From Endomicrobiales bacterium (GTDB lineage: Bacteria; Elusimicrobiota; Endomicrobiia; Endomicrobiales; JAFGGC01), in assembly GCA_016930715.1 (NCBI GenBank), contig JAFGGC010000025.1, positions 11,008 to 75,007 of the forward strand: DNA of 64,000 bases. The letters run 5' to 3'. Position numbers and translations under genes: made by a program. This document shows positions 40,155 through 58,900 of this stretch, one piece after another (within the stretch, counting starts at the first letter, position 1; the number at the start of each line of letters is the position of its first letter). The notes below the pieces were generated by a model. The model was not told the DNA's origin. It did no database searches and was given only the letters and a program-made list of their open reading frames with translations.

Positions 40155-40194
40155 CTTGCGCCGCCCTTTCGGTAAGTATTGATGATTTACGGGC

Positions 40195-42825
40195 TCAAGC
40201 TCCGCAGCACTTCTTGTATTTTTTCCCGCTCCCGCAGGGACACGGGTCATTCCTGCCTATTTTTTCTATGTGCCTGGGTTTGTCACCCGCGAGGTTCTGC
40301 GTCCTTTGGCCTCCCCCGCCGCCGCCGGCACCGACGGCCGCCATTTCTCTCGACTCGACCGTCCTCTGCACGCGCCTGACGGGTTCCGGGGCTATCTTGA
40401 TCTTGAAGATATACTCTATCGAAGCTTCTCTTATCCTTCTTATCATGTTCTCGAACATCGCGAACGACTCCTTCTGGTACTCTATCTTCGGGTCCTTCTG
40501 CCCGTACGCCCTGAGCCCTATCCCCTTTTTTATCTGGTCGAGGTCATACAGGTGCTCTTTCCACGCCGTGTCTATCATCTGAAGGAGTATCATCCTCTGT
40601 ATGTGGTGCAGGAGCGGCGTGGAAAGCTCCTCTTCCCTCTTTTTATAGGATTGTTCGATTTGTTCCTCCAGCAGGGCTCTCAACGTTTCCTGCTTGGATT
40701 CTAGTTTTTCGTTCTCCGCAAGTTCAATCTTGGAATTAAAATTCCTCTGGAGCCAAACGTCAAGACTCGGCCAGTCCCATTGTTCGGGATAGAGCTTCGC
40801 CGGCGCCCACAGCTCCAGTTTTTCTTCCACGGATTCCGCGAGCATGTCTTTTATCGTCTGCGATATGTCCTCGCCTTCAAGTATCTCGTTTCTCATCCTG
40901 TAGACGGCTTCCCTCTGCTTGTTCATCACGTTGTCGTATTCAAGAAGGTGTTTTCTTATGTCAAAATTCATGGCTTCGACTTTTCTCTGCGCGTTCTCTA
41001 TCGCCTTTGATATCCACGGATGCTGTATCTCTTCGCCCTCCTGCATGCCGAGCTTCTGCATTACCATAGATATACGCTCCGAACCGAAAAGGCGCATGAG
41101 CTCGTCTTCCAGCGAGAGATAGAATCTTGAGCTTCCCGGGTCGCCCTGCCTGCCCGAACGCCCGCGGAGCTGGTTGTCTATGCGCCTTGCCTCATGCCGT
41201 TCCGTGCCGAGTATATGCAGGCCGCCGAGCGACTTGATAAGCGAGGATTCCTCTTCCGTGCACGGGTTGCCGCCGAGGACTATGTCCGTTCCGCGGCCCG
41301 CCATGTTCGTGGCTATCGTCACGGCGCTCTTTTTCCCTGCCTGGGCTATTATCTGGGCTTCCATCTCGTGGTACTTGGCGTTCAGGACCTGGTGAGGCAC
41401 GCCTTTCCTGCGGAGCATCGCCGATATCTTTTCGGACTTTTCTATGGAACGCGTGCCAACGAGCACCGGCTGGCCTTTTCTCCACAGCGCGTCTATCTCG
41501 TTTATTATCGCGTCGTATTTTTCCTTTTCCGTCCTGTATATGACGTCGGCGTTGTCGGCGCGCACCATAGGGTTATGGGTCGGCACCTCAATGCTGTCAA
41601 GCTTGTATATCTCCCAGAACTCGGAAGCCTCGGTCATCGCGGTTCCGGTCATCCCGGAAATCTTCTTGTACATCCTGAAAAAGTTCTGGAAGGTTATCGT
41701 GGCAAGGGTTTGGTTCTCCTCGGCTATTCTCATGTTCTCTTTTGCCTCGACCGCCTGATGGAGCCCGTCTGACCATCTCCTGCCCGGCATCAGCCGGCCG
41801 GTAAATTCGTCAACTATTATTATCTGCCCCTCTTTGACCACGTAATCCACGTCGCGCTCGAAAAGGTTGTGCGCCTTGAGCGCCTGCGTGATGTGGTGGA
41901 CCCACTCGGATTGAAGGTCATCGTATATGTTTTTCACGCCAAGGAGCTTTTCCGCCTTTGTCACGCCCTGCTCGGTAAGCACTACCGTGTGGTTCTTTTC
42001 GTCGACGAGGTAATCGTAGCCGGCGCTGAGGTCTATGTTCTTGTACTTGGCCTCTATCTCCTCGGCCTCGGTTACTTTCCTGCCCTTCAAGTGCGGGATT
42101 ATCCTGTTGCACGTGTAGTATTTATCTGTGGATTCCTCGGCGGGCCCGGATATTATCAGCGGGGTCCTTGCTTCGTCTATCAGTATGGAGTCTACTTCGT
42201 CGACGATGGCGTAGTTTAATTCGCGGAGCACCCTGTCTTCTTTCATTATCACCATGTTGTCGCGAAGGTAGTCAAACCCTATCTCGTTGTTGGTGACGTA
42301 AGTGACGTCGCAGTTATACGCCGCCCGGCGCTCGGCGTTGGGCATGTCGTGCTGGACGAAACCGACCGTAAGGCCCAGGAACTCGTAGACCGGCCCCATC
42401 CAGTGCCTGTCCCTTTTTGCGAGGTAGTCGTTTACCGTAACGACGTGCACGCCCTTTCCCTCCAGGGCGTTCAAATAAACCGGCAGGGTCGCTACCAGGG
42501 TCTTCCCTTCGCCGGTCTTCATCTCTGCGATCTTTCCGGTGTGAAGCACGTATCCGCCGAGTATCTGAACGTCGAAATGTCTTAGTTTTATGGCCCTTTT
42601 CGCGGCTTCCCTGACGACCGCGAACGCTTCCGGAAGAAGGTCATTCAAGGCCTCGCCTTTCGAAAGACGTTCCCTGAACTGCAGGGTTTTGCCCTTCAAT
42701 TCATCGTCGGAAAGCGCGGATATCCCCGCTTCGAAACCGTTCACGGATTCAACTAAGGGCTTTATTTTCTTGAGAGTCCGTTCGTTCTGCGAACCGAATA
42801 TGGAATTCATCAGCATCTTTAACAT
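40195..42825 (-). CDS. secA: Preprotein translocase ATPase SecA
   Basis: [53 protein letters not shown]. Confidence 0.98.
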
Positions 42826-42925
42826 TTATTTCTTACCTCATTTCGATGCCTGGATATCCGTGCATTATACCAAATAAAGACGATATTTCAAAATATCCCT
42901 CTAAAATACCGCTCTTTTTCAGAAA

Positions 42926-42960
42926 ATAGAAAACCCTCCCCGACAGGGAGGGTCTTCTAT
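42926..42960 (-). terminator. Intrinsic terminator after the cold-shock gene
   Basis: Minus strand ATAGAAGACCCTCCC-tgtcg-GGGAGGGTTTTCTAT followed by T-rich tail. Confidence 0.75.
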
Positions 42961-42989
42961 TATCGTGTCAAAGACTGCTAAGGTTCAGT

Positions 42990-43193
42990 TTAAGCTTTCT
43001 GCACGTTCGAGGCCTTCGGACCCTTATCGGAATCGATGACGTCGAACTCCACCGCGTCGCCTTCCGCCAGAGATTTGAAACCCTCGCCCTGGATGGAAGA
43101 AAAATGCACGAACACGTCGCCGCTTCCGTCATCCTTGGCTATGAAACCGTAACCCTTCTGGTCATTGAACCACTTGACTTTTCCGCGTACCAT
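42990..43193 (-). CDS. Cold-shock protein (CspA family)
   Basis: GKVKWFN..KGYGFI, DVFVHFS. Confidence 0.96.
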
Positions 43194-43316
43194 TTCGCTG
43201 CTTCACCTGCCCTTTTACTCCGCTTTTTTCGCGGGTTTAATAACGAACCGGGCCGAGCCCGGACTCGCACGACATTTTATATCAACCGCATTTAATTTTC
43301 AATACTTATCGTTTAT

Positions 43317-44006
43317 TCAAAATTTCCTGTTCCACGCGGGGTCATGGTACTTTTCCCGCCTAAGCTGCCCGGCACTTTCCGATTCCCTTTTGGTGGGATT
43401 CTGCTTCGTCAAATCCGCCCCGAGGACGTTCCGGAAACCGTTCATTATGCGCTGTACCATTTCTTCTACATTGAATTTTTTATCGAAGTGTATCGAACCC
43501 TGCTGCAGTAGCGTCCTGCCGCGCCTCCTCTGGCAGGAGCCGAGCACTTTTTTTCCGGAAGCAACAAGATCATGCGGAAAGAAGCTCTCGACGCACAGGG
43601 CCCCCTTCCGGCTCTTCAGATCCCTGCCAGGACCCGCGAAATCCACTTGCTCGCCCATTTCCTCGAACGCTTTTTTCACCGCCGTGTGTATTATCTCGTA
43701 AGTCTTGAGCTGGTCATAAACGAAAGGACAATCCTTGCTGTTGGCGATAAAGGAGTATGACAGATCCCTGTCGTGCACGACCGACAATCCGCCCGTCATC
43801 CTTCTGGTGACGGGCAGCTTCATGCGGGCGAACTCCTCGTACTTTTGAAAATACCCAATCGTGACGCACTTCGCATTCCACGTGTAGAGCCTCAACGTCG
43901 CCGGCGTGCTGTCATTTTCGCTCTTCGCAATGAAAAGCGCTTCATCCATTGCCATGTTTTCCGGGCCGTCGCCCCGCTCCGAAAGGATAAACCTTAAAGT
44001 CTTCAT
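43317..44006 (-). CDS. Lipoate-protein ligase A/LipM-type catalytic domain
   Basis: NMAMDEAL, LRLYTW, RRMTGG..V.H, GKKVLGSCQRR, LQQGSI. Confidence 0.85.
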   Translation of the reverse strand: MKTLRFILSERGDGPENMAMDEALFIAKSENDSTPATLRLYTWNAKCVTIGYFQKYEEFARMKLPVTRRMTGGLSVVHDRDLSYSFIANSKDCPFVYDQLKTYEIIHTAVKKAFEEMGEQVDFAGPGRDLKSRKGALCVESFFPHDLVASGKKVLGSCQRRRGRTLLQQGSIHFDKKFNVEEMVQRIMNGFRNVLGADLTKQNPTKRESESAGQLRREKYHDPAWNRKF

Positions 44007-44305
44007 TGCTTTTCCTTTTTAAGCAGTTGTTTCTTCCTTTTTATTCCGCCTTTCGCGGAATACCCTCCGAGGGAACCGTCGGAACTGACAACCCTGTGGC
44101 ACGGAACAAATGGCGCGAAAGGGTTTTTTTTCAGCGCCTGTCCTACCGCCCTCGCCGCACCGGGTTTTCCGACGCGCCTGGCTATCTGGCCGTAAGTCGC
44201 GGTACTCCCCTTGGGGATTTTAAGGCATTCAAGCCACACCTGACGGCAGAATTTTGGGTATTTGAAAAATTTTTTTCTGATAGGATAAGGAAGGTTAACG
44301 GTCAT
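44003..44305 (-). CDS. O6-alkylguanine DNA alkyltransferase (MGMT family, C-terminal domain only)
   Basis: TYGQIA, AARAVG, NP...VPCHRV, LGGYS. Confidence 0.88.
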   Translation of the reverse strand: MTVNLPYPIRKKFFKYPKFCRQVWLECLKIPKGSTATYGQIARRVGKPGAARAVGQALKKNPFAPFVPCHRVVSSDGSLGGYSAKGGIKRKKQLLKKEKQ

Positions 44306-45044
44306 TGTAAATGTTCAGGCGGCCCTCTTCGTCCACGAAGGTATAAATCTCTTTGTTCCCCTTGTACTGCCTGTAATACCTGTTTATTTTTCTGATGTAT
44401 TCCCTCGTCTCCCTGTAGGGCGGAACGGAATTGTAACGCCTTACTGCCCCCGGCCCGGCGTTATAGGCGGCAAGCGCAAGCTCCGTGTCTCCGTTGAAAA
44501 GATCCAGCATGTCGCTGAGGTATCTCGTACCACCCCGAATATTCTGTTCGGGATCGAACATCTCTTCAACTTCAAGGACCCTGGCCGTCCGTGGCATCAA
44601 CTGCATGAGCCCGCACGCTCCCTTGCACGAAACGTCACAATTATTGAAGTTTGATTCAGCTTTTATCACGGCTTTGACTAGCGCGGGGTCAATACTGTTC
44701 CTTTTGGCTTCCCTGTTTATTATGTGGTCGTACGGGCTGGCTTTCCTGACGGCAGAACCGCCCCTTCCGGGCGTTACCTTGTAAGAAGACAAGAACCTTT
44801 CACTCACCCGGTCCGTGGTCGAATGTATCCTGACCTTTTTTATCTCTTCCCTCTCGAACTTTATCGAACCGTTTTTCATCGTCACCCAGCAGCTGCCGTC
44901 CGGATTTTTCACGATGTCGCCTTCCAGCACGCTGCCGTTGGACAGCACGACCTTTCCGGTCATACCGAAGGCTGGCGCGGCAAACACCGCCACAAAGACC
45001 AGGACCTTGAAACCGCGCGTGAAATCAAACATTGAACGTCGCAT
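44295..45044 (-). CDS. Secreted lytic transglycosylase (SLT domain)
   Basis: Signal-like N-terminus, AVIKAESNF, GACGLMQLMP, ALAAYNAGPG, PPYRETREY. Confidence 0.92.
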   Translation of the reverse strand: MRRSMFDFTRGFKVLVFVAVFAAPAFGMTGKVVLSNGSVLEGDIVKNPDGSCWVTMKNGSIKFEREEIKKVRIHSTTDRVSERFLSSYKVTPGRGGSAVRKASPYDHIINREAKRNSIDPALVKAVIKAESNFNNCDVSCKGACGLMQLMPRTARVLEVEEMFDPEQNIRGGTRYLSDMLDLFNGDTELALAAYNAGPGAVRRYNSVPPYRETREYIRKINRYYRQYKGNKEIYTFVDEEGRLNIYNDR

Positions 45045-46299
45045 TGTTCGCCTGCTCCTGCGCCTTTACCGGTTCAACCGGTTCCTGTTTCGCCATCATA
45101 CCCATCGACGCCCTCTTCTGGAAAACCTTCAGGAAAGCGTCAACGACCCTGGGATGAAACTGTTTGCCCCTGTTACGCCTTATTTCCTCGACTGCCTCCG
45201 CCAGGGTAAGCGCCTTGCGGTAAGGCCTGTCCGTGGTCATCGCGTCAAACGCGTCCGCCACCGCTATTATGGAAGCCGCGAGAGGTATCTTTTCGCCCGA
45301 AAGCTTGAACGGGTATCCCCGGCCGTCATATCTCTCGTGGTGGTACTTGACCCCCAACAAGACGTCCTTGAACTCGTTTATGGGGTTCAGTATCTCGACA
45401 CCCATCATCGGATGCTGTTTTATCGACTCCTTTTCCTTCATACTCAGCGGTTTTTTCTTGTTGAGGACTTTTTCCGGTATTCCGATCTTGCCGATGTCGT
45501 GCATCAGCGCCGCAGTGCGGAGGTTGTCTTCGAAAACCCGCATGTCGCCGACATCGGCCGTGTCGAGGTTCCTTGCTATCTCGATGGAATACCTCACGAC
45601 CCGTTCCGTGTGGCCCTTGGTGTACTTGTCCTTGGCCTCTATCGCCGTCGCGAGCGCTATAACCGTGTTCAGGAACAACCTCTTGTTTATCTCGAGCTGC
45701 TTGTTCAGGTCTTCGAAGAGCCACGCGTTCTGCATGGCCATGACCACGTCCGAAGCAAGCACCGAAAGGAAACCAAGCTCGTCTTTCCTGAAGGCAGTCT
45801 TGTTTATCTTCTCCCCAATGAACAGCACGCCTATCAGGTTGTGCCTGTAGAAACCCGGGACGAAAGCTTTCGCCTGGTAGTACGAAAACTCGTTTTTAAG
45901 GTCTTCCAGATATTTGCGCATTTCGCCGGCTTTTCTGCCGCCGTATTTTTTCTGCAGGTAATGCACGTTGTTATACAGAAGGAAGTCCTGCTTGATGCTT
46001 TTCAGGTTCTTGTCCGTGAAATACTTTATGAGCGGGTTATCAAGCTTTACTTTTGTGAATCCCACGGGGACCTTTATCCCCTTTTTGCCGCGGGAGATCT
46101 TGACTATGTATTCGCCGCTGTTCTTGTCAAGGAGCAGTATCCCGGCGTGCCTCACAGGAATGTTGCGCATTATGGTACGCACTATCAGACGGGCAAGGGT
46201 GTCAACCCGGCGGACAAGTATCATCTGACGCGCGGCTTTCTCCAGATCGCTTTTAAAATTCCTTCCCACCGGCAAAAGCTCCTTTTGGTTCTGCTTCAA
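45025..46299 (-). CDS. GAF + HD-GYP cyclic-dinucleotide phosphodiesterase
   Basis: KDKYTKGHTERV, LMHDIGK, HHERYDGRGYP, ADAFDAMTTDRPYRK. Confidence 0.92.
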   Translation of the reverse strand: MKQNQKELLPVGRNFKSDLEKAARQMILVRRVDTLARLIVRTIMRNIPVRHAGILLLDKNSGEYIVKISRGKKGIKVPVGFTKVKLDNPLIKYFTDKNLKSIKQDFLLYNNVHYLQKKYGGRKAGEMRKYLEDLKNEFSYYQAKAFVPGFYRHNLIGVLFIGEKINKTAFRKDELGFLSVLASDVVMAMQNAWLFEDLNKQLEINKRLFLNTVIALATAIEAKDKYTKGHTERVVRYSIEIARNLDTADVGDMRVFEDNLRTAALMHDIGKIGIPEKVLNKKKPLSMKEKESIKQHPMMGVEILNPINEFKDVLLGVKYHHERYDGRGYPFKLSGEKIPLAASIIAVADAFDAMTTDRPYRKALTLAEAVEEIRRNRGKQFHPRVVDAFLKVFQKRASMGMMAKQEPVEPVKAQEQANNATFNV

Positions 46300-46667
46300 C
46301 CCTTTAGTACGTACTTCTCTATTTTTTCCTTCAGATCCCTGAGATCGAGGGGCTTCGAGATATAGTCGATAGCGCCGAGCGCCTTTGCCCGTTCCCTGGG
46401 TTCCTTCTCCGGGCTTCCCGCGATTATGATTACCTTCGCCTCCGGATCCTCTTGTTTGATGCGCTTTAAAACCTTGAACCCGTCGATGCCCTCCATGTGT
46501 ATGTCAAGGAAGACACAGTCGATCTTATCCTTGTCATAAAGGGCCAGCGCTTCCTCGCCGGAAGTAGCTATCGTGCTTGCTATCTTCATCCTCTTTAGGA
46601 AGTTCTGCATGAAGCTTACTATTTCTTCTTCGTCGTCAACTACCAGGATGTGCGTTCCTTTAGCCAT
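46296..46667 (-). CDS. Stand-alone response-regulator receiver
   Basis: LVVDDE, FLDIHMEGIDG (phospho-Asp), YISKP. Overlaps HD-GYP start by 4 nt. Confidence 0.92.
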   Translation of the reverse strand: MAKGTHILVVDDEEEIVSFMQNFLKRMKIASTIATSGEEALALYDKDKIDCVFLDIHMEGIDGFKVLKRIKQEDPEAKVIIIAGSPEKEPRERAKALGAIDYISKPLDLRDLKEKIEKYVLKG

Positions 46668-46668
46668 T

Positions 46669-48843
46669 TTATATTACCCCGTCTATAGTTTTCCCTCCGA
46701 CTATCTTTTTGGGAAGCTGAATCGTGAAAGCCGTCCCTTCCCCGAAGCTTGACTCGAACCATATCTTCCCCCGATGGTTCTCCTCTATCATTCTCTTGAC
46801 CACGTACATCCCTATCCCTGTTCCGGATTTCGTGGATGACTTTGTCGTGAAGAATGGCGCGAATATCTTGTGTTTGTTCTCCGGTTTTATCCCCATACCG
46901 TTGTCTTCTATCCTTATTTGAGATGTCAATGAATCCTGAGACACCGTGAGCTTGACCGCCGGGCTGAATTTCTTCAGATCGTCATCGTTCATTCCGTCGA
47001 TTTTCTCCTGTATCGCCTCGTAAGCGTTGTCCAGTATGTTATACACCGTTTCCATTACCTGCGCCTTGACGCCGTAGATTATATCGTTTGAAAGTTTTTC
47101 AATTGCAAGCGGATATTTCGTTAGCCCGTGTTTTATCTTCAAAAGTTCCAGGGAAAGGTCTATAACCTCGTCCAGGAAGAAGTTCGAGCACAGCGTTTCC
47201 TTTGCTTCCACGCGGGCATAGTTCAGTATCCCTTTCACGATTCCGTCGGTCCGCTTCACGTTGTTTATTATCGAATCCGATATTTTCGCCAAATACTCGA
47301 AGGTCTTCTTGAAATCCTGGTTGTTTTCTATCACGTCCTGATGATTCGACGTGAAATTCTCGATCTCAAACCGAAGTTCCCCCGAAACCATCGAGAAATG
47401 GTTCAGCCGGTTGTTTATCTGGTGCGCCACACCTTCCGCCAACCCGCCGATCGAGGCTAGCTTTTCCGCCGCGAAGATCTTTTCCTGCGCCTTGGCGAAC
47501 TCCTCCACGAACAGGCAGTTCTCTATCGCCATCGACGTCTGGCGCGAGAGTATATTAAAAACATTAATATCGTCAATCGAATATGCTTTTTGATTAATTT
47601 TTTCACCAAGCAACATAAAACCCAATGACGAATCTTCGTAAAAGGACGGCACCACCAGCGACACGTGCATCGGAAAATTGATGGTCTTTACCACGTCGTG
47701 AGGTATTTCTTCGTAAAGGAATGGTTCTCGGTGCTTTTTCACGAACTCTACAAACGGGTTTTTTAAAGGAAATATGAAATCGTCGACTATCTTTTTATTC
47801 GACCTTATGGCCCTTAACCTGTAAAATCCATTCTCCCTGTCTTCTAGAAACAATGCAGCATACTCTATTTTAACTGATTTTGTCACTATCCTCACGATAA
47901 GATTTAGAAGCTTGCCTAGATTATGTTCCTTCGTCATACCGCTGGCCGCCTGAATGAGTATCTTCTGATACCTCCTCTGCTCTGCAAGAATAAGGTCTTC
48001 AGCTTTTCTTTGAAGCAATCTGTATCCGAGTGGGCCAAGTGTCGCAAATATCACGGCGTAAGTTGTTGAAAGCAGCCATGAATTTGTGTAATATCCAACA
48101 AAAAATGGCACTCCAAGGACAAGCGCGTAAAGAGTCAGAAATATTCCGAGACGTGTCACTATAACTTGTATTGATAATAAACGGTATTTAATTATGGCGT
48201 ATGAAATGAATATAACATATGCGGAAACCAGTCCATTTAAAATCGGAGGTATGGGGATATTATACCAGAGAAAATAATTTGTGGACCCCCCGACATATCC
48301 TAATAACGTTCCGAACATAATACTTGATATCTGGTTATGTAGAACACCGACGGTTATCGTCCAATGCTTTGCAATAACTATGAAAGCATATATTACATAC
48401 GACAAATAGTATATTACTCCGACATGAAATCCCACGCCTCCTATAGGCCAAAACGCAAACAACATCTTCTGCTCTACACCTGTCACGAAATATTCTGTAT
48501 ATACCGTTGTCGATATGACGATACTCAATAAATAACCTATGTAAATAACATTCTTCTTTTCCTTAAGTACGCCCAAAAATGCACTGATAAAATGCAAAAA
48601 TGTTACTGGCATAAATAATACACCTATCATACATGTTCTTACCAAATAGTCAGCAAGTTTTAAGTTATTTACAGTCATCATCCACAAACAATAGAAAAAT
48701 GACCACCATGCAATTGAAAGACAAAAAAGTGTGAACGTTATGTTCTTAGTATTCTTTCTGTCCCTTGTAAGCACAAACATACCAAGCAAGAAAGAAGTGA
48801 GGAAGTTTATTGCGGCTGAATAAATGTAATATTTTATTCCCAT
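46669..48843 (-). CDS. Membrane sensor histidine kinase: multi-TM (HisKA_7TM-like) input + GAF + HisKA + HATPase
   Basis: About 270 aa of successive TM helices, GAF, H-box GVAHQINN, N-box NILDNA, DNGMGI, PFFTTK, GTGIG. Confidence 0.92.
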   Translation of the reverse strand: MGIKYYIYSAAINFLTSFLLGMFVLTRDRKNTKNITFTLFCLSIAWWSFFYCLWMMTVNNLKLADYLVRTCMIGVLFMPVTFLHFISAFLGVLKEKKNVIYIGYLLSIVISTTVYTEYFVTGVEQKMLFAFWPIGGVGFHVGVIYYLSYVIYAFIVIAKHWTITVGVLHNQISSIMFGTLLGYVGGSTNYFLWYNIPIPPILNGLVSAYVIFISYAIIKYRLLSIQVIVTRLGIFLTLYALVLGVPFFVGYYTNSWLLSTTYAVIFATLGPLGYRLLQRKAEDLILAEQRRYQKILIQAASGMTKEHNLGKLLNLIVRIVTKSVKIEYAALFLEDRENGFYRLRAIRSNKKIVDDFIFPLKNPFVEFVKKHREPFLYEEIPHDVVKTINFPMHVSLVVPSFYEDSSLGFMLLGEKINQKAYSIDDINVFNILSRQTSMAIENCLFVEEFAKAQEKIFAAEKLASIGGLAEGVAHQINNRLNHFSMVSGELRFEIENFTSNHQDVIENNQDFKKTFEYLAKISDSIINNVKRTDGIVKGILNYARVEAKETLCSNFFLDEVIDLSLELLKIKHGLTKYPLAIEKLSNDIIYGVKAQVMETVYNILDNAYEAIQEKIDGMNDDDLKKFSPAVKLTVSQDSLTSQIRIEDNGMGIKPENKHKIFAPFFTTKSSTKSGTGIGMYVVKRMIEENHRGKIWFESSFGEGTAFTIQLPKKIVGGKTIDGVI

Positions 48844-48846
48844 AAT

Positions 48847-49953
48847 TTACAGAAGCTTGTGCGCTTTGACCTTTTTAGTTAGTATCAAATAGAATATGTC
48901 TTCCGTCTTGATCCATTGAAGCTCAAGCTTATACTTTCTGTCGACATCAATATTGTTGTCCCTTAGCAGGCAAAGAATATCATGCAGGTTTCTATGCACG
49001 AACACCCAGTTACAGAACCAGTCCGGCGATACAAAATTCCATATATCAAAATCCTTATAGCTTACTACAAATTTACCTCCTGGATTTAGGATACCCATGC
49101 AAAAGATTATGAACTCAATCAATATATTGCTCGGCAAATAGTCTGCTACCCCTATGTTATAAATGAGATCTTTTTTTCCAAAAACACTGGCAAAATGCTC
49201 CTTTTTATTGGATATATTCCGTATGCTCTCCTTCTTGAATCCAAATCTGACTTTTCTATTCCTATATTTTCCTAAATATCGTCTTGCATAATCCAAGGCA
49301 AGGTCGTCCTGATCTACGTTTGTGCAATTCAGCATACCTGAATATTCTTTGTGGAATCCTTTTTCAAAATATGTTCTGAGTATCCTGGCTCCACCGCAAC
49401 CTATATCAAGCATTTCAATCCGCGGCTTTTTAGTTTTATTTACGAAATCCCTCATTATTTCGACCATCTTATCGCGCCTGTGTCGCACAGACACTACGCT
49501 ATCGACTGACAAAAGATAATTGTCAAGATATTGACCTATTCCTTTCGACAATATTCTATTATCATACATCATTTCAAGCATTTTAAAATCCCCTGGATAC
49601 CCTCTTGGTTTTTCTGAAGCCCACTTCATTATACAACTATGCTTCGTCACTTCCTTAATTACTTCCCTGAATTTCCTTTTAATTTCCTTTATTAGTAACC
49701 TTGTCTTCAAACCTTTCCTTTCTATTTTTTTCTCAAGTTCCCTTCCTTTAAAAACGACATGATCACATCTCTCATTAATCTGTCTTTGAAGATATTTGGG
49801 CCTCATTTTATACTTTTTATATACCTGCTTAATACCTTCAATAAATCCTACTACATCTTTTAAAAAAAATCCTGCAACAAGCTCCCTCTGCTTGCTGTTT
49901 TCAGTAAGTTCCATAATTGAATTGATCGCAACTTCCATTATTGACCTTTCCAT
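48847..49953 (-). CDS. Class I SAM-dependent methyltransferase, PhcB-like
   Basis: KPRGYPGDF.M motif, SAM motif MLDIGCG, VDQD..AL, DLIYNIGVADYL, LNPGG. Confidence 0.75.
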   Translation of the reverse strand: MERSIMEVAINSIMELTENSKQRELVAGFFLKDVVGFIEGIKQVYKKYKMRPKYLQRQINERCDHVVFKGRELEKKIERKGLKTRLLIKEIKRKFREVIKEVTKHSCIMKWASEKPRGYPGDFKMLEMMYDNRILSKGIGQYLDNYLLSVDSVVSVRHRRDKMVEIMRDFVNKTKKPRIEMLDIGCGGARILRTYFEKGFHKEYSGMLNCTNVDQDDLALDYARRYLGKYRNRKVRFGFKKESIRNISNKKEHFASVFGKKDLIYNIGVADYLPSNILIEFIIFCMGILNPGGKFVVSYKDFDIWNFVSPDWFCNWVFVHRNLHDILCLLRDNNIDVDRKYKLELQWIKTEDIFYLILTKKVKAHKLL

Positions 49954-49963
49954 TTACCCTCCA

Positions 49964-51166
49964 TTATATGGCCTGCAGTACCACGCAGCAGTTATTGCCG
50001 CCAAAGGCGAAGCCATTGTTTATTGCGGCATCTACTTCCTGTTTCCTTGCGGAATTCGGCACGCAATCTATCCCGCATTCGGGATCGGGCGTTTCGAAAT
50101 TAACGGTGGGAGGTATCACCCCGTCGCGCATGGCAAGACAGCATGATATTGCCTCGATTGCCGAAGCCGCACCCATCGTGTGGCCTATCATAGATTTTAT
50201 GGAGCTGACAGGAACTTTTTTCCCGTGTTCCCCGAACACGTCAATTATCGCCTGTGATTCGTTTTTATCGTTCGCCACCGTGCCGGTTCCGTGAGCGCTG
50301 ATATAGTCGATATCCGCACCCGAAAGCCCTGAATCCTCAAGAGCTTTTTTCATTGCTTTTGCCACGCCTTCTCTTTTCGGTATCGTCATATTGTAGGCGT
50401 CCGACGACATTCCATAGCCGGATATCTCGCAGTACATTTTGGCATTTCTTCTTTCTGCGTGTTCGGCGCTTTCCAAAATCAATATCCCGGCCCCTTCGCC
50501 GAGCAGCATTCCCTTCCTGTTTTTGTCAAATGGCGCGCACTTTTCAGGCGCCATCGCGTACAGCCGCTGAAATCCCTGAAAACCTATCCTCGACAGTGAT
50601 TCCGTGCCGCCTACTATAGCTGTTTCAATTTCCCCTTTCTTTATCAGGTCATATCCATAACCCAAAGCGAAATTTCCCGCGCCGCAGGCGTTAGGCACCA
50701 GAAGGCTCATACCCTTGACTCCGAAATAATAGCCGACGTTCCTGACGATTGAAATGGGCAGGACATTGAGTATGGATTTTGTTTCCAACCCCTTATACCT
50801 TTTTTCGATAGCGTTGCGGGATGAATAATCAATTTCGCTGTCTTCTGGCAACGTGGTGCCTATTATTACGGCCGTCCTGTGCTTGCGATTGTCTCCGAAC
50901 TCCGCGTCATCAAGCGCCATTTTCGTGGCCGCGATGGCGAACTGCGACGCCCTACCGAAATGCTTTGAGAGTTTTTTCGGCATGAACCGCGAAGGGTCAA
51001 AATCCCTTATTTCTCCGGCAAAGTGCCTGTTGTATTTCGACGTATCGAACATGGACACTTTGTTTATTCCTGATTTTCCGGCAATCAGGTTCTGCCAGAA
51101 AACGTCCGTGCCGATTCCGATAGAAGAAACGACCCCCAATCCTGTCACGACGACTCTATTATCCAT
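49964..51166 (-). CDS. beta-ketoacyl-ACP synthase (FabF/KS-alpha type), intact Cys-His-His
   Basis: PNACGAG, SAHGTGT, SIKSMIGH, NGFAFGG. Confidence 0.92.
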   Translation of the reverse strand: MDNRVVVTGLGVVSSIGIGTDVFWQNLIAGKSGINKVSMFDTSKYNRHFAGEIRDFDPSRFMPKKLSKHFGRASQFAIAATKMALDDAEFGDNRKHRTAVIIGTTLPEDSEIDYSSRNAIEKRYKGLETKSILNVLPISIVRNVGYYFGVKGMSLLVPNACGAGNFALGYGYDLIKKGEIETAIVGGTESLSRIGFQGFQRLYAMAPEKCAPFDKNRKGMLLGEGAGILILESAEHAERRNAKMYCEISGYGMSSDAYNMTIPKREGVAKAMKKALEDSGLSGADIDYISAHGTGTVANDKNESQAIIDVFGEHGKKVPVSSIKSMIGHTMGAASAIEAISCCLAMRDGVIPPTVNFETPDPECGIDCVPNSARKQEVDAAINNGFAFGGNNCCVVLQAI

Positions 51167-51199
51167 ATTTGATCTTTCTTTATACCAAAATACCCGTAA

Positions 51200-52489
51200 C
51201 TAAAAATTGTATGTGGCGCCCAGCCTGAAAATGTTCAACGGATACTCATAGCTCCTGCCGTCTTTTGAAGGGCTGTTTGAGGGACAGAAAGCGTAACAAA
51301 AATCAATATTCACCTTTCCTGCCTTATACCCTGCTCCTATGGAATAGTACACGAAATCATACTGGTTTATCTCAGTAAGAGCCAGCATATCGGTCGAAAA
51401 CGGCACAGGGTCCGTCTGTATGCCGGCTCTCAACGCAAGCTTTTCGCTCTGCCTGTATTCGGCTCCCAAACGCACCTGCGTCGTATCTTTCCAGTCCCTG
51501 TTGTCGAGTTTGCGGTCAACATCCGGAAACGCGGCGTCCTTGTATTTGATCGTCTCATGCATGACTGAATAGTTGTTCTGGTCAACGCACAGCCCGACAG
51601 TGACGTCATCCTGCGGCAGGTACGAAAATCCCAGACCGTACGTCATCGGATATTTGTAGTCCTCGTCATAGTCGGCTTCGGTCGGCGCCAGCTTGCTCGT
51701 GCCGGTCAGCTTTATCGTCGTGCCGCTTCTGAACACAAAGCCGCTGTTGACCTTTTCGCTAAGCTTATACATCACGCCCGTTACCAGCTGCATCCCGTAG
51801 CCAGAGGCGCTTTTTTCGTACAAAACGCTGTAGTCTGCGGGCATTGCCGACCCCGTTCCTCTCGTATAATCCTTCTTGATCGTCAGCGTGTCCGTCATAT
51901 TGACAACGTCAATCCCGACGCCCAGCGAAAGCTCCGAATTCATTTCCTTCGCGACGCTGAAGTTATACACTATGAAAGCGTAAGCGGCTTCAAGGCTCGC
52001 GTCGATCGTGTCTGTGCCTGTGAGCGCATCACTCACCGAATCCTCCCACTTGCCTCCCCCGCCGCCTATGCCGTACATGTTCAACGAATACGTGATGCCG
52101 CCGCTGTGCTTGTATCCGCCCACGAAGGGTATGAGAGCGGACGTTTTGAATTTCTTGCTCTGAAACTCAGCCGGCTCGCTCGGCATCTGCGCGGCGATGG
52201 GAAAATCCCCGTCCTGCGACACGGGCGCGGAAACGTTCATCATGGACCGGTTGCTCTTGGCGTCATCCGCCAGATAAAAAACGGAAGCCTCCACGGCGGC
52301 TTCCTTCTGAAGCGCGAGGCCTGCGGGGTTATAGTACGCCGCTGTCGGCCCGTCCGCGACCGCTATTACCGCGGACCCCATGCCTCCGTCCCTGGCGCCG
52401 GGAAGTATGAATATCCCTTTCGCCCACAAAGACTGCCCAAAAACCGATAAAACAAACAGAAGCGTGCATGTCAATCTTAGCTGTTTCAT
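51200..52489 (-). CDS. FadL/TodX-family outer-membrane hydrophobic-compound channel
   Basis: Signal peptide, GARDGGMGSA..AVADGPTAAYYNPAGL plug, W.DT...RLGAEY, C-terminal ...GATYNF. Confidence 0.8.
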   Translation of the reverse strand: MKQLRLTCTLLFVLSVFGQSLWAKGIFILPGARDGGMGSAVIAVADGPTAAYYNPAGLALQKEAAVEASVFYLADDAKSNRSMMNVSAPVSQDGDFPIAAQMPSEPAEFQSKKFKTSALIPFVGGYKHSGGITYSLNMYGIGGGGGKWEDSVSDALTGTDTIDASLEAAYAFIVYNFSVAKEMNSELSLGVGIDVVNMTDTLTIKKDYTRGTGSAMPADYSVLYEKSASGYGMQLVTGVMYKLSEKVNSGFVFRSGTTIKLTGTSKLAPTEADYDEDYKYPMTYGLGFSYLPQDDVTVGLCVDQNNYSVMHETIKYKDAAFPDVDRKLDNRDWKDTTQVRLGAEYRQSEKLALRAGIQTDPVPFSTDMLALTEINQYDFVYYSIGAGYKAGKVNIDFCYAFCPSNSPSKDGRSYEYPLNIFRLGATYNF

Positions 52490-52496
52490 TTTTTTA

Positions 52497-52520
52497 ATGT
52501 TATATCTTCCGATATAACAT
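52497..52520. promoter_or_regulatory. Perfect 10-bp hairpin between SD and start codon of the FadL-like gene
   Basis: ATGTTATATC-ttcc-GATATAACAT. The mRNA loop is GGAA. Confidence 0.6.
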
Positions 52521-52534
52521 ATCCTCCTTTGTTA

Positions 52535-53002
52535 TTATTGCCCCAATTTCACTCCGAAACCCAGAACCGCCTCGGCGATGATATCTTCCCCCACCTTCGC
52601 CCTGACCTTTACGATTCCGCCGGTGTCTATCACCTTGTCGGCGCTCGCTTCTATGACAAGCGTGTCCCCCGGCACCGCCGGCCTCTTGAAAACTGCCTCG
52701 ACCTTCCCCAAAAAAAACTGCGGGTTTTTCTTCATGTTGTCCGATTTCACGTGCGCGTAAAGGAGTATGCCGGCCTGCGCCATCGCCTCTATGATGATGA
52801 CGCCCGGCATTATGGGGTTTTCCGGAAAGTGCCCCTGAAAATAGTCCTCGTTGGCTGTGATGTGCTTAAGGCAGGTTATCGAGGAACCCGTTTTGTCGAA
52901 TTCCACGACCCTATCGATGAACACGAAAGGATACTTCTGAGGAAGGACCTTCTTTACATCGCAGGAAAAAAATTGGCCGTTTTTCTGGTCTTGATGCGAC
53001 AT
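52535..53002 (-). CDS. 3-hydroxyacyl-ACP dehydratase (second FabZ-type copy)
   Basis: LPQKYPFVFIDRV, HFPENPIMPGVIIIEAMAQ. Confidence 0.92.
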   Translation of the reverse strand: MSHQDQKNGQFFSCDVKKVLPQKYPFVFIDRVVEFDKTGSSITCLKHITANEDYFQGHFPENPIMPGVIIIEAMAQAGILLYAHVKSDNMKKNPQFFLGKVEAVFKRPAVPGDTLVIEASADKVIDTGGIVKVRAKVGEDIIAEAVLGFGVKLGQ

Positions 53003-53059
53003 GAAATCCTTTTGAAAACAAGAAAGTTAAAACCGCCCTTTAATTCTAAAGGGTTTCCT

Positions 53060-53317
53060 TTATTTTTTCAATAGTTTTTCAATTAATTCATAAACGTCAT
53101 TTGGCGAGCGAATGGTGGGTATTTGTTCTTCCGGAATCGCGACTTTGAACTTCTTTTCCACCGCGGCGACTATCTCAAGCGCCTTCATGCTGTCAACCCC
53201 CATATCCTCGGCAAATTTTGCGTCATCCTTCAATTCCTTTTCCGGAATCTCGGATATGTCGGAGATGAGTTTCCTTATCCCCTTGCGCATCGCACCCGCA
53301 TCCTTAACTTTCGGCAT
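53060..53317 (-). CDS. Acyl carrier protein
   Basis: DMGVDSMKALEI phosphopantetheine Ser motif. GGAGG SD before ATG at 53317. Confidence 0.9.
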   Translation of the reverse strand: MPKVKDAGAMRKGIRKLISDISEIPEKELKDDAKFAEDMGVDSMKALEIVAAVEKKFKVAIPEEQIPTIRSPNDVYELIEKLLKK

Positions 53318-53399
53318 CTTGAAAACCTCCTTTTGGATTTTTAGCCCCCCCTCCGGGGACCGTTTTTGTTTCTTTAACCTTTGAACTCTTGAACCTGCC

Positions 53400-54134
53400 C
53401 TATATCGCCAATCCACCGTCAATCTTTATTACCTCGCCCGTAATGTATCCCGCTTTTCCCGACGCGAGAAAAACGCAGAGATCCGCCACTTCTTCCGGCT
53501 CTCCGAGTCGCTTCTGCGGCACCGACTCCAGTATCTTTTTTTTGACGTCTTCGCCCAGCGAATCCACCATATCCGTCTTTATGTACCCCGGGCATACCGT
53601 GTTCACCCGCACGTTGTAGCCGGCAACCTCCTTGGCGAGCGCTTTCGAAAAACCGATTATCCCGGCTTTCGAAGCGCTGTAATTCGTCTGTCTCGGCAGG
53701 CCCGTTATCCCGCTGACGGAACTCATGTTGATAACGCATCCGCCCTTCTGCTTCATAAAGGTCGTTATGGCCGCCCTCGTCATGTTGAACGTGCCGTTGA
53801 GGTTGGTGTCTATCACGGTCTTCCAGTCGTCGTGCGTCATCATCACGAGCGCCTTGTCGATATTCACGCCGGCGTTGTTGACGACGACATCGAGTTTCTT
53901 GAATTTTTTCAGGGCCTCGTTCACTACCGCCCTGCACTGCTCGTATTCCCGAACGTCGGTTTTCACGCTGACGACGTTCTTCGCGGATTTTTGAAGAGCA
54001 TCTGCCTCGTCCTTGCTCCTGTTATAGGTGAAAACCACGTTGGCCCCGGCTTTCGAGAAAGCCAGAACGCAGGCTCTCCCGATGCCCCTTGAACCGCCGG
54101 TTATTATGGCTGTCTTTCCCTTTAAAACGTTCAT
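53400..54134 (-). CDS. 3-oxoacyl-ACP reductase (FabG type)
   Basis: TGGSRGIG, NNAG, YSASK, PGYIKT, IDGGL. Confidence 0.93.
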   Translation of the reverse strand: MNVLKGKTAIITGGSRGIGRACVLAFSKAGANVVFTYNRSKDEADALQKSAKNVVSVKTDVREYEQCRAVVNEALKKFKKLDVVVNNAGVNIDKALVMMTHDDWKTVIDTNLNGTFNMTRAAITTFMKQKGGCVINMSSVSGITGLPRQTNYSASKAGIIGFSKALAKEVAGYNVRVNTVCPGYIKTDMVDSLGEDVKKKILESVPQKRLGEPEEVADLCVFLASGKAGYITGEVIKIDGGLAI

Positions 54135-55363
54135 ACTTTCTCCAGTATGCAGGCGCTGTTGTATCCGCCGGGCCCGAATGAAGTCACGAGAACGGTCTTT
54201 ATCCTCTTTTTTCTGGCCCTGTTCGGCACGCAGTCAATGTCGCAATCCGGGTCCTTCTGCTTGTAGTTTATCGTAGGAGGTATGAACCCTTTGTGCATCG
54301 CTCCGGCGGACGATATTATCTGCAGGATACCAGACGCAGAGAAGGTCTCCCCGAGCATCGATTTTATGGAGCTTGCCGGTATTGTCTTCAGGCTCTCGCC
54401 GAAGATTTTCTTGAGAACCAAGACCTCTATCCCGTCCATCTCCCGGGAGGAGTTCGCGCAGGTCGATATGTAATCTATGTCTTCGGGAAGCACGTCGGCC
54501 TGCTCCAGCGCGGACCTCACCGCTTTTTCAAGGCCTAACCCTTGAGGGTGGATCCTCGCGATGCCTCTGGCGTCAAAGTAATTCGCGACTGCCCTGACCC
54601 TGGCGTATACTTTCGCCTTTCTGGCAAGCGCGGTTTTTTCGTCCTCCATCACCACCACTCCCGCGCCTTCACCCAGGACCGGGCCATTGCGCCTCTTGTC
54701 GTACGGGCACATAACTTCTTTGCCTTTTAGCCCTGCCAGGTACCCAAGCTTATTGAACCCGAAAAGCACCGGATAAGACAGGGTGTCCACGGCCCCGCAG
54801 AGGACGGTTTTTGCCCTGCCTGTTTCTATTGTGTTTTCAGCGTATTTTATTGCGTCAAGCGATGAAGTGTAGCCGGTGGAAACTGTGGTGTTGAAACCCT
54901 GCATGTTGAACTTTATCGAAACCTGGCTTGAGGCTGCGTTTATGACGGTTGAAGGGAACAGCGCGGGATTGGAAAAATTTAGGCCTTCCTTCAACACCTG
55001 CCTGTCGAACTGGACTATCGGTACGAGGTGCGAAAACGACGTCCCGGTGACCATGCCGATGTCGTCGGTGTTCTCTCCGGTTATCGATAGCTTCGCGTCG
55101 TCGATAGCCATTTTTGAGGCGGCGATCAGAAATAGGGCGCTCCTGTCGAGGTTCCGCAGGCCCTTTTCGTCGCCGAAAAAAAACATAAGTTTCGAGTCGT
55201 CGACTTCGCCAGCTGTTTTCGCCTTGATTTTTCCGACAGAAAAGTTCCGGATAGGTTTAACGCAATTCCTGCCTGCCCTAAGATTCCCCCAAAACTCTTC
55301 TTTCCCCACAGCCCCTGAAGTAACTACGCCGAGGCCCGAAATGACAAGTTTGACAGTTTTCAT
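54131..55363 (-). CDS. Ketosynthase-like protein lacking the catalytic triad (chain-length-factor-like)
   Basis: KS fold (LGEGAG, SSIKSMLG, SFGPGG) but STGYTSS (no Cys), STCANSS (no His), LGET (no His). Confidence 0.85.
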   Translation of the reverse strand: MKTVKLVISGLGVVTSGAVGKEEFWGNLRAGRNCVKPIRNFSVGKIKAKTAGEVDDSKLMFFFGDEKGLRNLDRSALFLIAASKMAIDDAKLSITGENTDDIGMVTGTSFSHLVPIVQFDRQVLKEGLNFSNPALFPSTVINAASSQVSIKFNMQGFNTTVSTGYTSSLDAIKYAENTIETGRAKTVLCGAVDTLSYPVLFGFNKLGYLAGLKGKEVMCPYDKRRNGPVLGEGAGVVVMEDEKTALARKAKVYARVRAVANYFDARGIARIHPQGLGLEKAVRSALEQADVLPEDIDYISTCANSSREMDGIEVLVLKKIFGESLKTIPASSIKSMLGETFSASGILQIISSAGAMHKGFIPPTINYKQKDPDCDIDCVPNRARKKRIKTVLVTSFGPGGYNSACILEKV

Positions 55364-55406
55364 GGTTAAGGCATCGAGAGCAAGATTGACCCGCTGCTTA
55401 CTTGGT

Positions 55407-55436
55407 ATTCTATCTAAAATAAAAGGGATTTGTCAA
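55407..55436 (-). promoter_or_regulatory. sigma70-type promoter heading the PKS/FAS-signalling cluster
   Basis: TTGACA(55436-55431)-N18-TAGAAT(55412-55407). Confidence 0.6.
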
Positions 55437-55483
55437 GGATGGAGACCTAAGGAAAAAGTTGCACAAAAATTTTACTGGAGCAT

Positions 55484-58887: not shown

Positions 58888-58900
58888 AAGGGATTTCCGT

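Follow-up and report, generated by a model that had tools for sequence, protein, structure and literature searches.

The stretch of DNA analysed here (the window) comprises 64,000 nucleotides of contig JAFGGC010000025.1 (positions 11,008 to 75,007, forward strand) of GenBank assembly GCA_016930715.1, from an Endomicrobiales bacterium of the phylum Elusimicrobiota. Within it, a methyltransferase (MT) gene and the first part of the adjacent sensor histidine kinase gene lie in an AT-rich block, one edge of which falls inside the kinase reading frame. We conclude that this block is probably an in-frame enzyme-plus-sensor cassette, set in a conserved operon predicted to encode a ketosynthase/chain-length factor pair (KS/CLF), a ketoreductase (KR), an acyl carrier protein (ACP), a dehydratase (DH), a FadL-like channel, a further ketosynthase (KS2), the MT, a kinase with a seven-transmembrane (7TM) sensor and a GAF domain, a response regulator (RR) and an HD-GYP domain protein. 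That such a swapped enzyme-plus-sensor cassette is a general feature of the MT and 7TM gene pair across phyla is well supported by the comparisons presented below.

The MT gene and the first 431 kinase codons share a synonymous-site composition that is foreign to the genome. In 300-base sliding windows the GC content of positions 47550-49949 is 0.32-0.42, in comparison to approximately 0.45-0.60 on either side, and when 1-kb windows are used, the block is the only part of the 64-kb window in which GC falls below 0.43. At third codon positions (GC3) the value is 0.388-0.389 for the MT gene and 0.32-0.50 for kinase codons 1-420, rising to 0.58-0.73 from codon 421 onward; neighbouring genes have a GC3 of 0.64-0.74, with the exceptions of KS2 (~0.57) and ACP (0.537). 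We delimited the block by a two-boundary likelihood scan on GC3, covering 4360 codons of 12 co-directional genes. The maximum-likelihood low-GC3 segment, 47551-49967, has 802 codons, with a GC3 of 0.389 inside and 0.671 outside (log-likelihood ratio, LLR, 107). Its low-coordinate edge is sharp, the interval of two log-likelihood units being 47542-47560, which corresponds to kinase codon 431. On the high-coordinate side, towards the end of KS2, the edge is poorly fixed (49921-50681) because the GC3 of KS2 is itself intermediate. The abrupt drop of composition inside the kinase gene, described from hand counts in an initial annotation of this DNA, was thus borne out, and both the counts and the coordinates were right to within a few bases.

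A low GC content may also reflect the amino-acid make-up of the encoded proteins (Ile, Lys, Phe, Asn) or a codon preference of genes for membrane proteins, and the initial annotation had considered that GC3 might then be the same as in the flanks. Here, we computed the GC3 expected from the amino-acid composition and the core codon usage of the genome. The expected values were 0.645-0.659, while those observed were 0.389 for the MT, 0.364 for the 7TM part and 0.426 for the GAF part (z -10.3, -9.4 and -6.7, respectively). For kinase residues 431-724 the observed value was 0.660 in comparison to 0.638 expected, and KS2 was mildly low (0.573 vs 0.668, z -4.1). The GAF part could not be separated in GC3 from the MT and 7TM parts (LLR 0.7) but was separable from residues 431-724 (LLR 13.4). 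GC at codon positions 1 and 2 is indeed somewhat low in kinase codons 1-145 (0.32 vs 0.35-0.40 in the rest of the gene). However, a paralogous 7TM-GAF kinase of the same genome keeps its GC3 at 0.72-0.73 over both the 7TM and the GAF part, with no internal step (p 0.43; the change-point test on kinases left out the G012 kinase), and the drop is also seen in the soluble MT and in the cytoplasmic GAF domain. The expected-GC3 test and the flat paralogue refute an explanation by amino acids or membrane-protein codons, and we assign it a negligible probability.

On the scale of the whole genome, the block is unusual but not singular. The mean GC of 2.4-kb windows is 0.514 (standard deviation 0.034), with a 0.5% quantile of 0.380, and the block reaches a minimum of 0.369. 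When such windows with GC below 0.42 are merged, 15 regions result, the block among them, and just 14 of the 796 open reading frames of at least 350 amino acids have a GC3 below 0.45. The other 14 regions are found on contigs C2, C3, C5, C6, C8, C9, C24, C30, C36, C39 and C40 of this genome (G000), the lowest values being 0.325 (C30, 78401-89000) and 0.331 (C3, 29201-34400). We also looked for signs of a mobile element. No tRNA genes are present within 40000-60000, only short, chance-level matches were found as flanking repeats at the block edges, none of the 12 proteins scanned between 44295 and 57592 is a mobility gene product, and promoter, terminator and Rfam-family scans at the locus gave nothing notable. 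A classical genomic island was rejected: the composition is atypical, but a mobility gene, a tRNA target and flanking direct repeats are all missing.

Another trivial source of such a block would be an assembly or binning chimera of two organisms. The genome is a 45-contig assembly, and the sequence was found in one sample only: the DNA of the block is present in one sequencing run, the likely source, and next to none of its words occur in a second run of the same study. Nevertheless, assembling the source run independently yielded a contig of 14,371 bases that agrees with the window over 45485-53000 (0 differences) and has one depth throughout, all reading frames at the block are intact and colinear with full-length homologues, with both edges in or beside such frames, and the same pattern recurs in many other assemblies. 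A chimera is hence hardly credible. Contigs of the source sample show one form at the locus, from which no inference on the absence of alleles follows; short skips and variant letters at low likeness, in contigs of the two runs, represent conserved parts of other organisms. Since GC3, the paralogue and the independent contig agree, the block is real and well placed, and neither a composition artefact nor a join; the observation of an AT-rich block is confirmed.

In order to see whether the block also has a history of its own, we compared the parts of the kinase separately. From its sequence the protein can be assigned to the HisKA_7TM-GAF histidine kinases, with a 7TM domain, a GAF domain, a phospho-accepting His and a HATPase domain: H474, N606 and the G-box glycines are invariant in the kinase alignment (A3), and the GAF region, whose matches are under the cut-offs, aligns with GAF-positive relatives. 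The relatives searched lie outside the window's own family and genus, no genome of which was in the set, and the nearest kinase core found is 69% identical. In comparison to the orthologues G003 (from a genome of another family of the same order), P0009 and P0010, the 7TM part (residues 1-228) is 22-27% identical, the linker and GAF part (229-430) 64-67% and the kinase core (431-724) 65-67%. For the 7TM part of the window kinase, identity is instead 41-43% with those of P0011 and P0018 and ranges from 35 to 43% with the sensors of kinases linked to an MT.

Trees of the parts, built by quick searches with SH-aLRT support, give the same picture. In the 7TM tree (54 rows) the window kinase falls in a clade of 14 rows with support 98, 12 of which are MT-linked and 2 without a known context; the MT-linked kinases that share this grouping are mostly of Omnitrophota. 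In the C-half tree (45 rows; 9 rows without this part left out) it is the sole MT-linked row of an 11-row clade (support 97) which includes 6 non-MT kinases of the window's own order, and in the GAF tree (47 rows; 7 left out) the window kinase, G003, P0009 and P0010 form one clade (support 97). The approximately unbiased (AU) test rejects the grouping of the other partition at p 1.1e-72 for the 7TM data and 1.0e-45 for the C-half data. The 7TM tree thus conflicts with the GAF and C-half trees, the congruence that the initial annotation had named as refuting its reading is not seen, and the ancestry of the 7TM sensor differs from that of the GAF domain and core of the same protein. When the trees were split at residues 1-430/431-724, only weak discordance was obtained (N-half support 89, AU p 0.043), as the orthologous GAF domain dilutes the 7TM signal; the three-part split resolves this. 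For the same reason, BLAST ranks by halves looked congruent, with P0009, P0010 and G003 at the top for both: the GAF domain masks the 7TM signal.

The exchange of modules appears to be general in this kinase family. In the kinases P0008, P0012 and P0014 the 7TM parts are 72-82% identical, and the GAF parts and cores only 37-43% and 35-52%, respectively, which looks like a recent exchange of sensor modules between very different kinases. Family kinases are also found directly or closely behind genes for PilZ-fused enzymes, namely 3-hydroxy-3-methylglutaryl coenzyme A (HMG-CoA) reductase (G006, G011), a thioesterase (G014) and an aminotransferase (G012), as noted at L023 6392-7981, L026 6464-8008, L025 7058-7963 and L019 4030-5697. 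For still others, the gene ahead of the kinase encodes an FAD oxidase (G001, G010) or an aldehyde dehydrogenase (G035, G038). The sensors of G006 and G011, which belong to different families and are both located behind PilZ-HMG-CoA reductase genes, form a sister pair in the 7TM tree with support 99, a pairing that the C-half tree does not show. Together with the G016/G373 pair, in which the enzyme is an MT, this gives a hint that the 7TM type may follow the upstream enzyme across families. Two tandem arrangements were noted as well: in L066 (2099-4690) and L068 (8250-10808) a second 7TM-GAF kinase with its own receiver stands beside the MT-linked kinase, and in G022 two family kinases are placed approximately 1.6 kb apart on one contig.

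The MT and this type of 7TM sensor constitute a conserved and tightly linked gene pair across phyla. In the window the MT stop is 3 bases ahead of the kinase start. We scanned species genomes for MT-family loci with an 8-row alignment and evaluated the best 80 of at least 576 loci. A 7TM kinase was directly downstream in 27 of the 73 evaluable loci, with gaps of -11 to +66 bases; it followed 25 of the 32 closest MTs in comparison to 2 of the 41 distant, mostly planctomycete, ones. Within the phylum of the window the kinase follows the MT in 5 of 6 loci outside the window, the sixth being cut by a contig end. A scan of metagenome contigs with a 7TM-only alignment, which removes ascertainment through the MT, revealed an MT-family gene directly upstream in 23 of 25 evaluable loci. 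The divergence of the two also seems to run in parallel. In 19 complete pairs, MT distances were correlated with 7TM distances (r 0.33, Mantel p 0.023), but not with those of the GAF part (r -0.05) or the core (r -0.12), the latter two being correlated with each other (r 0.50, p 0.001). Labels of 7TM type cluster on the MT tree, requiring 12 changes vs 16.1 when shuffled, a number as low being reached in 0 of 200 shuffles. MT and 7TM divergence therefore seem to track each other rather than the GAF or kinase parts.

The AT-rich step over the MT and 7TM parts recurs in many unrelated loci. Their GC3 is significantly lower than that of the rest of the kinase at 8 of the 18 loci tested in genomes and at 9 of the 12 from metagenomes, and the reverse was found at none. 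The metagenome test covered 12 of 26 loci, i.e., the non-redundant ones with an MT match and at least 500 kinase codons; L152, in which the MT is missing, and L157, which has no upstream DNA, were left out. The whole operon (KS, MT, kinase, RR and HD-GYP genes) is also present in L080, L081 and L085, which are Omnitrophota and Planctomycetota records. In L080, GC3 is 0.83 and 0.68 in the KS genes, 0.30 in the MT, 0.29 in the 7TM part, 0.71 in the GAF part, 0.85 in the core, 0.81 in the RR and 0.85 in the HD-GYP gene, the low segment extending from the last KS codons to kinase codon 287. Two further observations concern these records: a HigB-like/HTH pair is located between the KS genes of L080 (1693-2339), and genes of the '23S rRNA intervening sequence protein' family stand beside the RR gene (L080 8006-8368; L085 8070-8447).

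The low segments end next to conserved parts of the kinase. In residue numbers equivalent to the window kinase, the downstream edge is at 268 in L078, while L080 and L085 both have it at 279, in each case just ahead of the linker 281-320, which is 80-88% identical among the orthologues. In the window the edge comes later, at residue 431, shortly before residues 441-480, where conservation within the protein is highest (90-93% identical). Homologous crossovers would be expected to leave edges of this kind. We thus propose that the cassette may have been exchanged by recombination, with crossovers in two conserved anchors: one at the 3' end of KS2, the other in the linker behind the seventh transmembrane helix or, in the window, at the start of the helix of the dimerization and histidine phosphotransfer (DHp) domain. 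The AT-richness would then be the mark of imported DNA, or of a segment now cut off from recombination with the host population.

The same composition could arise with no transfer at all, if a long-resident, recombination-cold and hypervariable segment of the operon were drifting towards AT. The drift would come from AT-biased mutation, together with escape from a recombination-linked process that keeps third positions GC-rich, a mechanism drawn from general knowledge. Such drift fits a GAF domain that is AT-rich yet orthologous and that is as distant from G003 at synonymous sites as the core, the lack of mobility signatures at the block, and the step itself, which is common and always in one direction, as a standing process would make it. 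However, it leaves unexplained why the 7TM part groups with MT-linked sensors of other phyla and the rest of the protein with its own order, and why the MT is so rare, being found in 2 of 41 genomes in the order sample and in just 5 of 401 in the phylum sample (the window's genome counted). Moreover, the related MT-kinase loci L063 and L088 have no GC3 step. We consider drift of a resident segment improbable, both in its outline and in the mechanism given for it.

Several results weigh against an exchanged cassette and should be stated together. The GAF domain is inside the AT-rich block and yet is not phylogenetically foreign, and this constitutes the main loose end. Synonymous-site identity to G003 is 0.50 for the GAF part and 0.52 for the core, which gives no distinction between them, so that a single import would need a donor as far from G003 as the host is, or another cause would have to be sought. 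The window MT is on a long branch (1.45) outside any well-supported set, and the MT beside it, joined with a weak support of 89, belongs to a kinase with a different 7TM type; the window MT's joint arrival with its 7TM part is therefore unsupported by the tree. The donor search found none, with best matches of 38% for the MT, 43-44% for the 7TM part and 43-47% for the kinase N-half. The co-variation of MT and 7TM is modest (r 0.33) and its rows are mutually related, and the block edges are free of mobility genes, tRNA genes and flanking repeats. As the step is found in over half of the loci, AT-richness may be a standing property rather than the mark of many recent events. Since the trees were obtained by quick searches, have SH-aLRT values as their only support and include several long-branched rows, the fine order within clades is not to be trusted. 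Finally, product, ligand and binding are putative for every member of the family.

The initial annotation had proposed a swapped specificity cassette made up of the MT and the whole input half of the kinase. Three results favour the swap as such: the 7TM sensor is of discordant ancestry, MT and 7TM are a conserved pair that seems to co-vary, and the step is recurrent. The extent has to be revised, as the swapped unit is, by ancestry, MT plus 7TM, and the GAF domain groups with orthologues of the core. The term pherotype, also used in that annotation, would further imply that alternative alleles exist within one species.

We then turned to the MT itself. Its Pfam methyltransferase matches are weak and all under the curated cut-offs (e.g., 21.2 vs 30), no NCBIfam family was matched, and a profile search of the PDB returned generic methyltransferases only, at E 1.5e-5 or weaker. 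At E<=1e-3 the protein has 2101 relatives, of which the closest shares 38% identity, and a search by word index had found 4 MT relatives at 32-35% identity. The predicted model (pLDDT 93.6) matches class I methyltransferases with Z 17-19 over 190-254 residues; the best match is 3ocj, an uncharacterised Bordetella protein (Z 19.3, root-mean-square deviation 3.2, 254 residues aligned). With high confidence in the modelled fold, the protein can be considered a class I S-adenosylmethionine (SAM)-dependent methyltransferase, nearest to small-molecule methyltransferases. G187, D214 and D216 are conserved in the family alignment, as the glycine-rich motif and the acidic residue after strand 2 of the class I fold; all nine invariant residues of this alignment (A1) are kept in the window MT, and the family has a conserved motif of the type KPRGYPGD[YF]. 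An N-terminal PilZ domain is carried by 12 of 16 sampled family members and by 14 of the 27 kinase-linked MTs, and one MT carries a receiver domain.

The small-molecule fold of the MT, the intact KS2 with its CLF-like partner and the FadL-type channel lead us to favour a model in which the enzyme product is what the sensor perceives. The KS/ACP enzymes would make a hydrophobic acyl product, which the MT most likely methylates; the 7TM domain would sense the methylated product within the membrane, so that chemical specificity would depend on MT and 7TM jointly. From there, the signal would pass by way of the GAF-kinase core, the RR and the HD-GYP protein into a change of cyclic di-GMP (c-di-GMP), and in relatives the PilZ domain on the MT would close a c-di-GMP loop. 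That the MT makes the signal sensed by the 7TM domain is inferred from linkage, co-variation and analogy, and we hold it as a tentative reading, with somewhat less than an even chance. That the signal passes between cells, in a pherotype-like role, is doubtful.

A real cassette could instead serve a private feedback on lipid metabolism through c-di-GMP. An envelope lipid would then be the substrate of the MT, or the MT would bind the sensor directly, and the 7TM domain would keep watch on the membrane of its own cell or on the enzyme itself. The PilZ and receiver domains on the MTs would make the MT a regulated target of c-di-GMP, which is in accordance with such a loop, as are the HD-GYP output of the kinase, seen here and in five other loci, and the position of family kinases behind the PilZ-fused HMG-CoA reductase, thioesterase or aminotransferase genes mentioned above. 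The operon is, in addition, flanked by a gene for a YfhO-like membrane protein and an envelope gene set. On the other hand, a FadL-type channel for hydrophobic compounds occurs in the operon here, in G003 and in L063 and fits export or uptake, and the frequent joint replacement of sensor and enzyme is what diversifying selection on a shared signal would be expected to produce. We regard a private loop as possible, but less likely than not.

The nearest precedent appears to be the phc operon of Ralstonia. The methyltransferase PhcB is described as making methyl 3-hydroxy fatty-acid signals which the kinase PhcS senses, and PhcB/PhcS sequences as sorting strains into two signal-type groups independent of phylotype (PMC11960443, PMC8578825). 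As in phcBSRQ, one operon of the window has a methyltransferase gene immediately followed by genes for a membrane sensor kinase and a receiver, in this order; the likeness is one of gene order, and no Ralstonia record was among the best 80 of at least 576 MT-family loci. A closer resemblance to phcB-phcS-phcR-phcQ is seen in G016 (L024 6932-12963), where MT and 7TM kinase are followed by a receiver-HATPase hybrid (507 aa) and a receiver-HATPase protein (364 aa). Unlike in phc, the sensor in the window is a HisKA_7TM-GAF kinase and the output is an HD-GYP protein instead of a LysR regulator, the adjoining KS/ACP genes suggest a dedicated lipid, and the variable unit cuts through the kinase gene and is compositionally foreign.

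The pattern also recalls Gram-positive peptide systems. In agr, conserved flanks enclose a gene for signal production and the input region of the receptor kinase, two elements that vary in concert. For comQXP, pherotypes and a striking polymorphism are reported (PMC4408185). As in agr and comQXP, an enzyme gene and a receptor input form a variable segment in the window, the GAF part varying in composition only, and the genes on either side (KS2, kinase core, RR, HD-GYP) share 60-65% identity with their syntenic counterparts in G003. However, agr and comQXP concern peptide signals in Firmicutes and within-species alleles defined by cross-activation tests, while the partner in the window is a small-molecule methyltransferase and our comparisons are between phyla and families. 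In the CqsA/CqsS (Vibrio), LqsA/LqsS (Legionella) and RpfF/RpfC/RpfG (Xanthomonas diffusible signal factor, DSF) systems, the enzyme for a hydrophobic, fatty-acid-derived signal is encoded beside a multi-pass membrane kinase, and the output of Rpf is an HD-GYP c-di-GMP phosphodiesterase, a type of output shared by the operon in the window. These systems differ in their synthase families (aminotransferase-like, crotonase) and sensor folds and have no methyltransferase, and we know of no cassette-like compositional block reported for them. HisKA_7TM (PF16927) was met only as an entry in censuses of archaeal kinases, among them PMC5847659, whose listing names no ligand or partner enzyme. Among open-access papers and preprints we found no ligand or partner enzyme named for HisKA_7TM, no linkage of it to a methyltransferase family, and nothing relevant on a PilZ-methyltransferase architecture or on such a system in Omnitrophota.

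The genes around the block form a closely packed string on the minus strand, in the order murJ, uvrC, YfhO-like, KS1, KR, ACP, FabZ, FadL-like, KS2, MT, kinase, RR, HD-GYP, SLT transglycosylase, lplA and secA (Table 1). KS2 matches NCBIfam NF005589 with 403 bits (cut-off 387) and is 60% identical to the syntenic gene in G003. KS1 is 33% identical to KS2 and lacks the Cys and both His of the latter, and therefore resembles a chain-length-factor partner. As a pair, KS1 and KS2 resemble the ketosynthase/chain-length-factor heterodimer of type II polyketide or aryl-polyene-like systems. The RR gene starts 1 base past the kinase stop, its product being 62% identical to the G003 orthologue, and the HD-GYP gene overlaps it by 4 bases; the HD-GYP protein is likely a c-di-GMP phosphodiesterase output. 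The string of kinase, RR and HD-GYP genes is also present in L066, L078, L080, L081 and L085.

The G003 locus is syntenic (KR-FadL-ACP-FabZ-KS2-[slot]-kinase-RR-HD-GYP-SLT-lplA-secA), and the slot which the MT occupies in the window holds a ParB-like gene, an FAD amine-oxidase-type gene and an NAD_binding_4 reductase gene. GC3 is low there as well, at 0.33 for the FAD oxidase, 0.34 for the reductase and 0.33 for kinase codons 1-272, the flanks being at 0.45-0.57. The kinase is an ancient resident of its chromosomal position, which is found as murJ-uvrC-kinase-lplA in one family of the same order (L027 and L028, from G024 and G032). There, the kinase directly follows uvrC, with lplA after the kinase in L028; therefore, the set from YfhO to MT in the window represents an insertion, or else a loss in that family.

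Table 1. Predicted features of the AT-rich block and the surrounding operon, in positions of the window.
Feature	Positions	Strand	Basis
AT-rich block, low-GC3 segment: MT gene and kinase codons 1-431	47551-49967	-	likelihood scan
MT gene, 368 aa, class I SAM-dependent fold, N-terminal helical domain, no PilZ	48847-49953	-	model and weak Pfam
Kinase, 724 aa, HisKA_7TM-GAF histidine kinase	46669-48843	-	Pfam
Kinase residues 1-228, HisKA_7TM sensor of MT-linked type	48160-48843	-	PF16927, 43.2 bits vs cut-off 28.6
Kinase residues 229-430, linker and GAF, AT-rich yet orthologous to own clade	47554-48159	-	identity, GAF tree
Kinase residues 431-724, DHp and HATPase core, host-like composition	46669-47553	-	HATPase_c 1.8e-21, 77.1 bits
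RR, stand-alone response regulator receiver, 123 aa	46296-46667	-	PF00072, 8.5e-29
HD-GYP domain protein, 424 aa	45025-46299	-	PF13487 HD_5, 5.8e-36
KS2, FabF-like ketosynthase, Cys/His/His intact; upstream anchor of the block	49964-51166	-	Pfam ketoacyl-synt N and C
Lipid/polyketide-type gene set	51200-55363	-	Pfam and NCBIfam matches
FadL-like outer-membrane channel	51200-52489	-	Pfam/NCBIfam
FabZ	52535-53002	-	Pfam/NCBIfam
ACP	53060-53422	-	Pfam/NCBIfam
FabG-type KR	53400-54134	-	Pfam/NCBIfam
KS1, without catalytic residues	54131-55363	-	Pfam/NCBIfam; pairwise alignment with KS2

One 7TM type is tied to one enzyme family, with the enzyme gene upstream in 23 of the 25 loci found through the sensor, and enzyme and sensor seem to evolve as a unit apart from the GAF-kinase core, which provides a testable candidate for what these kinases sense. 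The recurrent GC3 step, running from near the KS end to conserved stretches in the kinase, would mark a within-gene exchange of modules, and such a step can be searched for elsewhere. If the cassette is one of signal and receptor, pherotype-like diversification would extend from Gram-positive peptide systems and Ralstonia phc to lipid signals in candidate phyla without cultured models. Were it a private loop of lipid feedback, c-di-GMP would still be linked, through PilZ on the enzyme and the HD-GYP output, to lipid tailoring. In its widest form the proposal is of lipid signalling widespread in uncultivated phyla (Elusimicrobiota, Omnitrophota, Planctomycetota, Nitrospirota and others), with an MT-defined hydrophobic signal produced by neighbouring KS/ACP enzymes, a HisKA_7TM membrane receptor, a c-di-GMP output through an HD-GYP protein and an MT and 7TM cassette that is repeatedly replaced through recombination within the kinase gene, from which pherotype-like diversity would arise. 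We consider this unlikely at present, but if it were true, the HisKA_7TM domains would gain their first ligand class.

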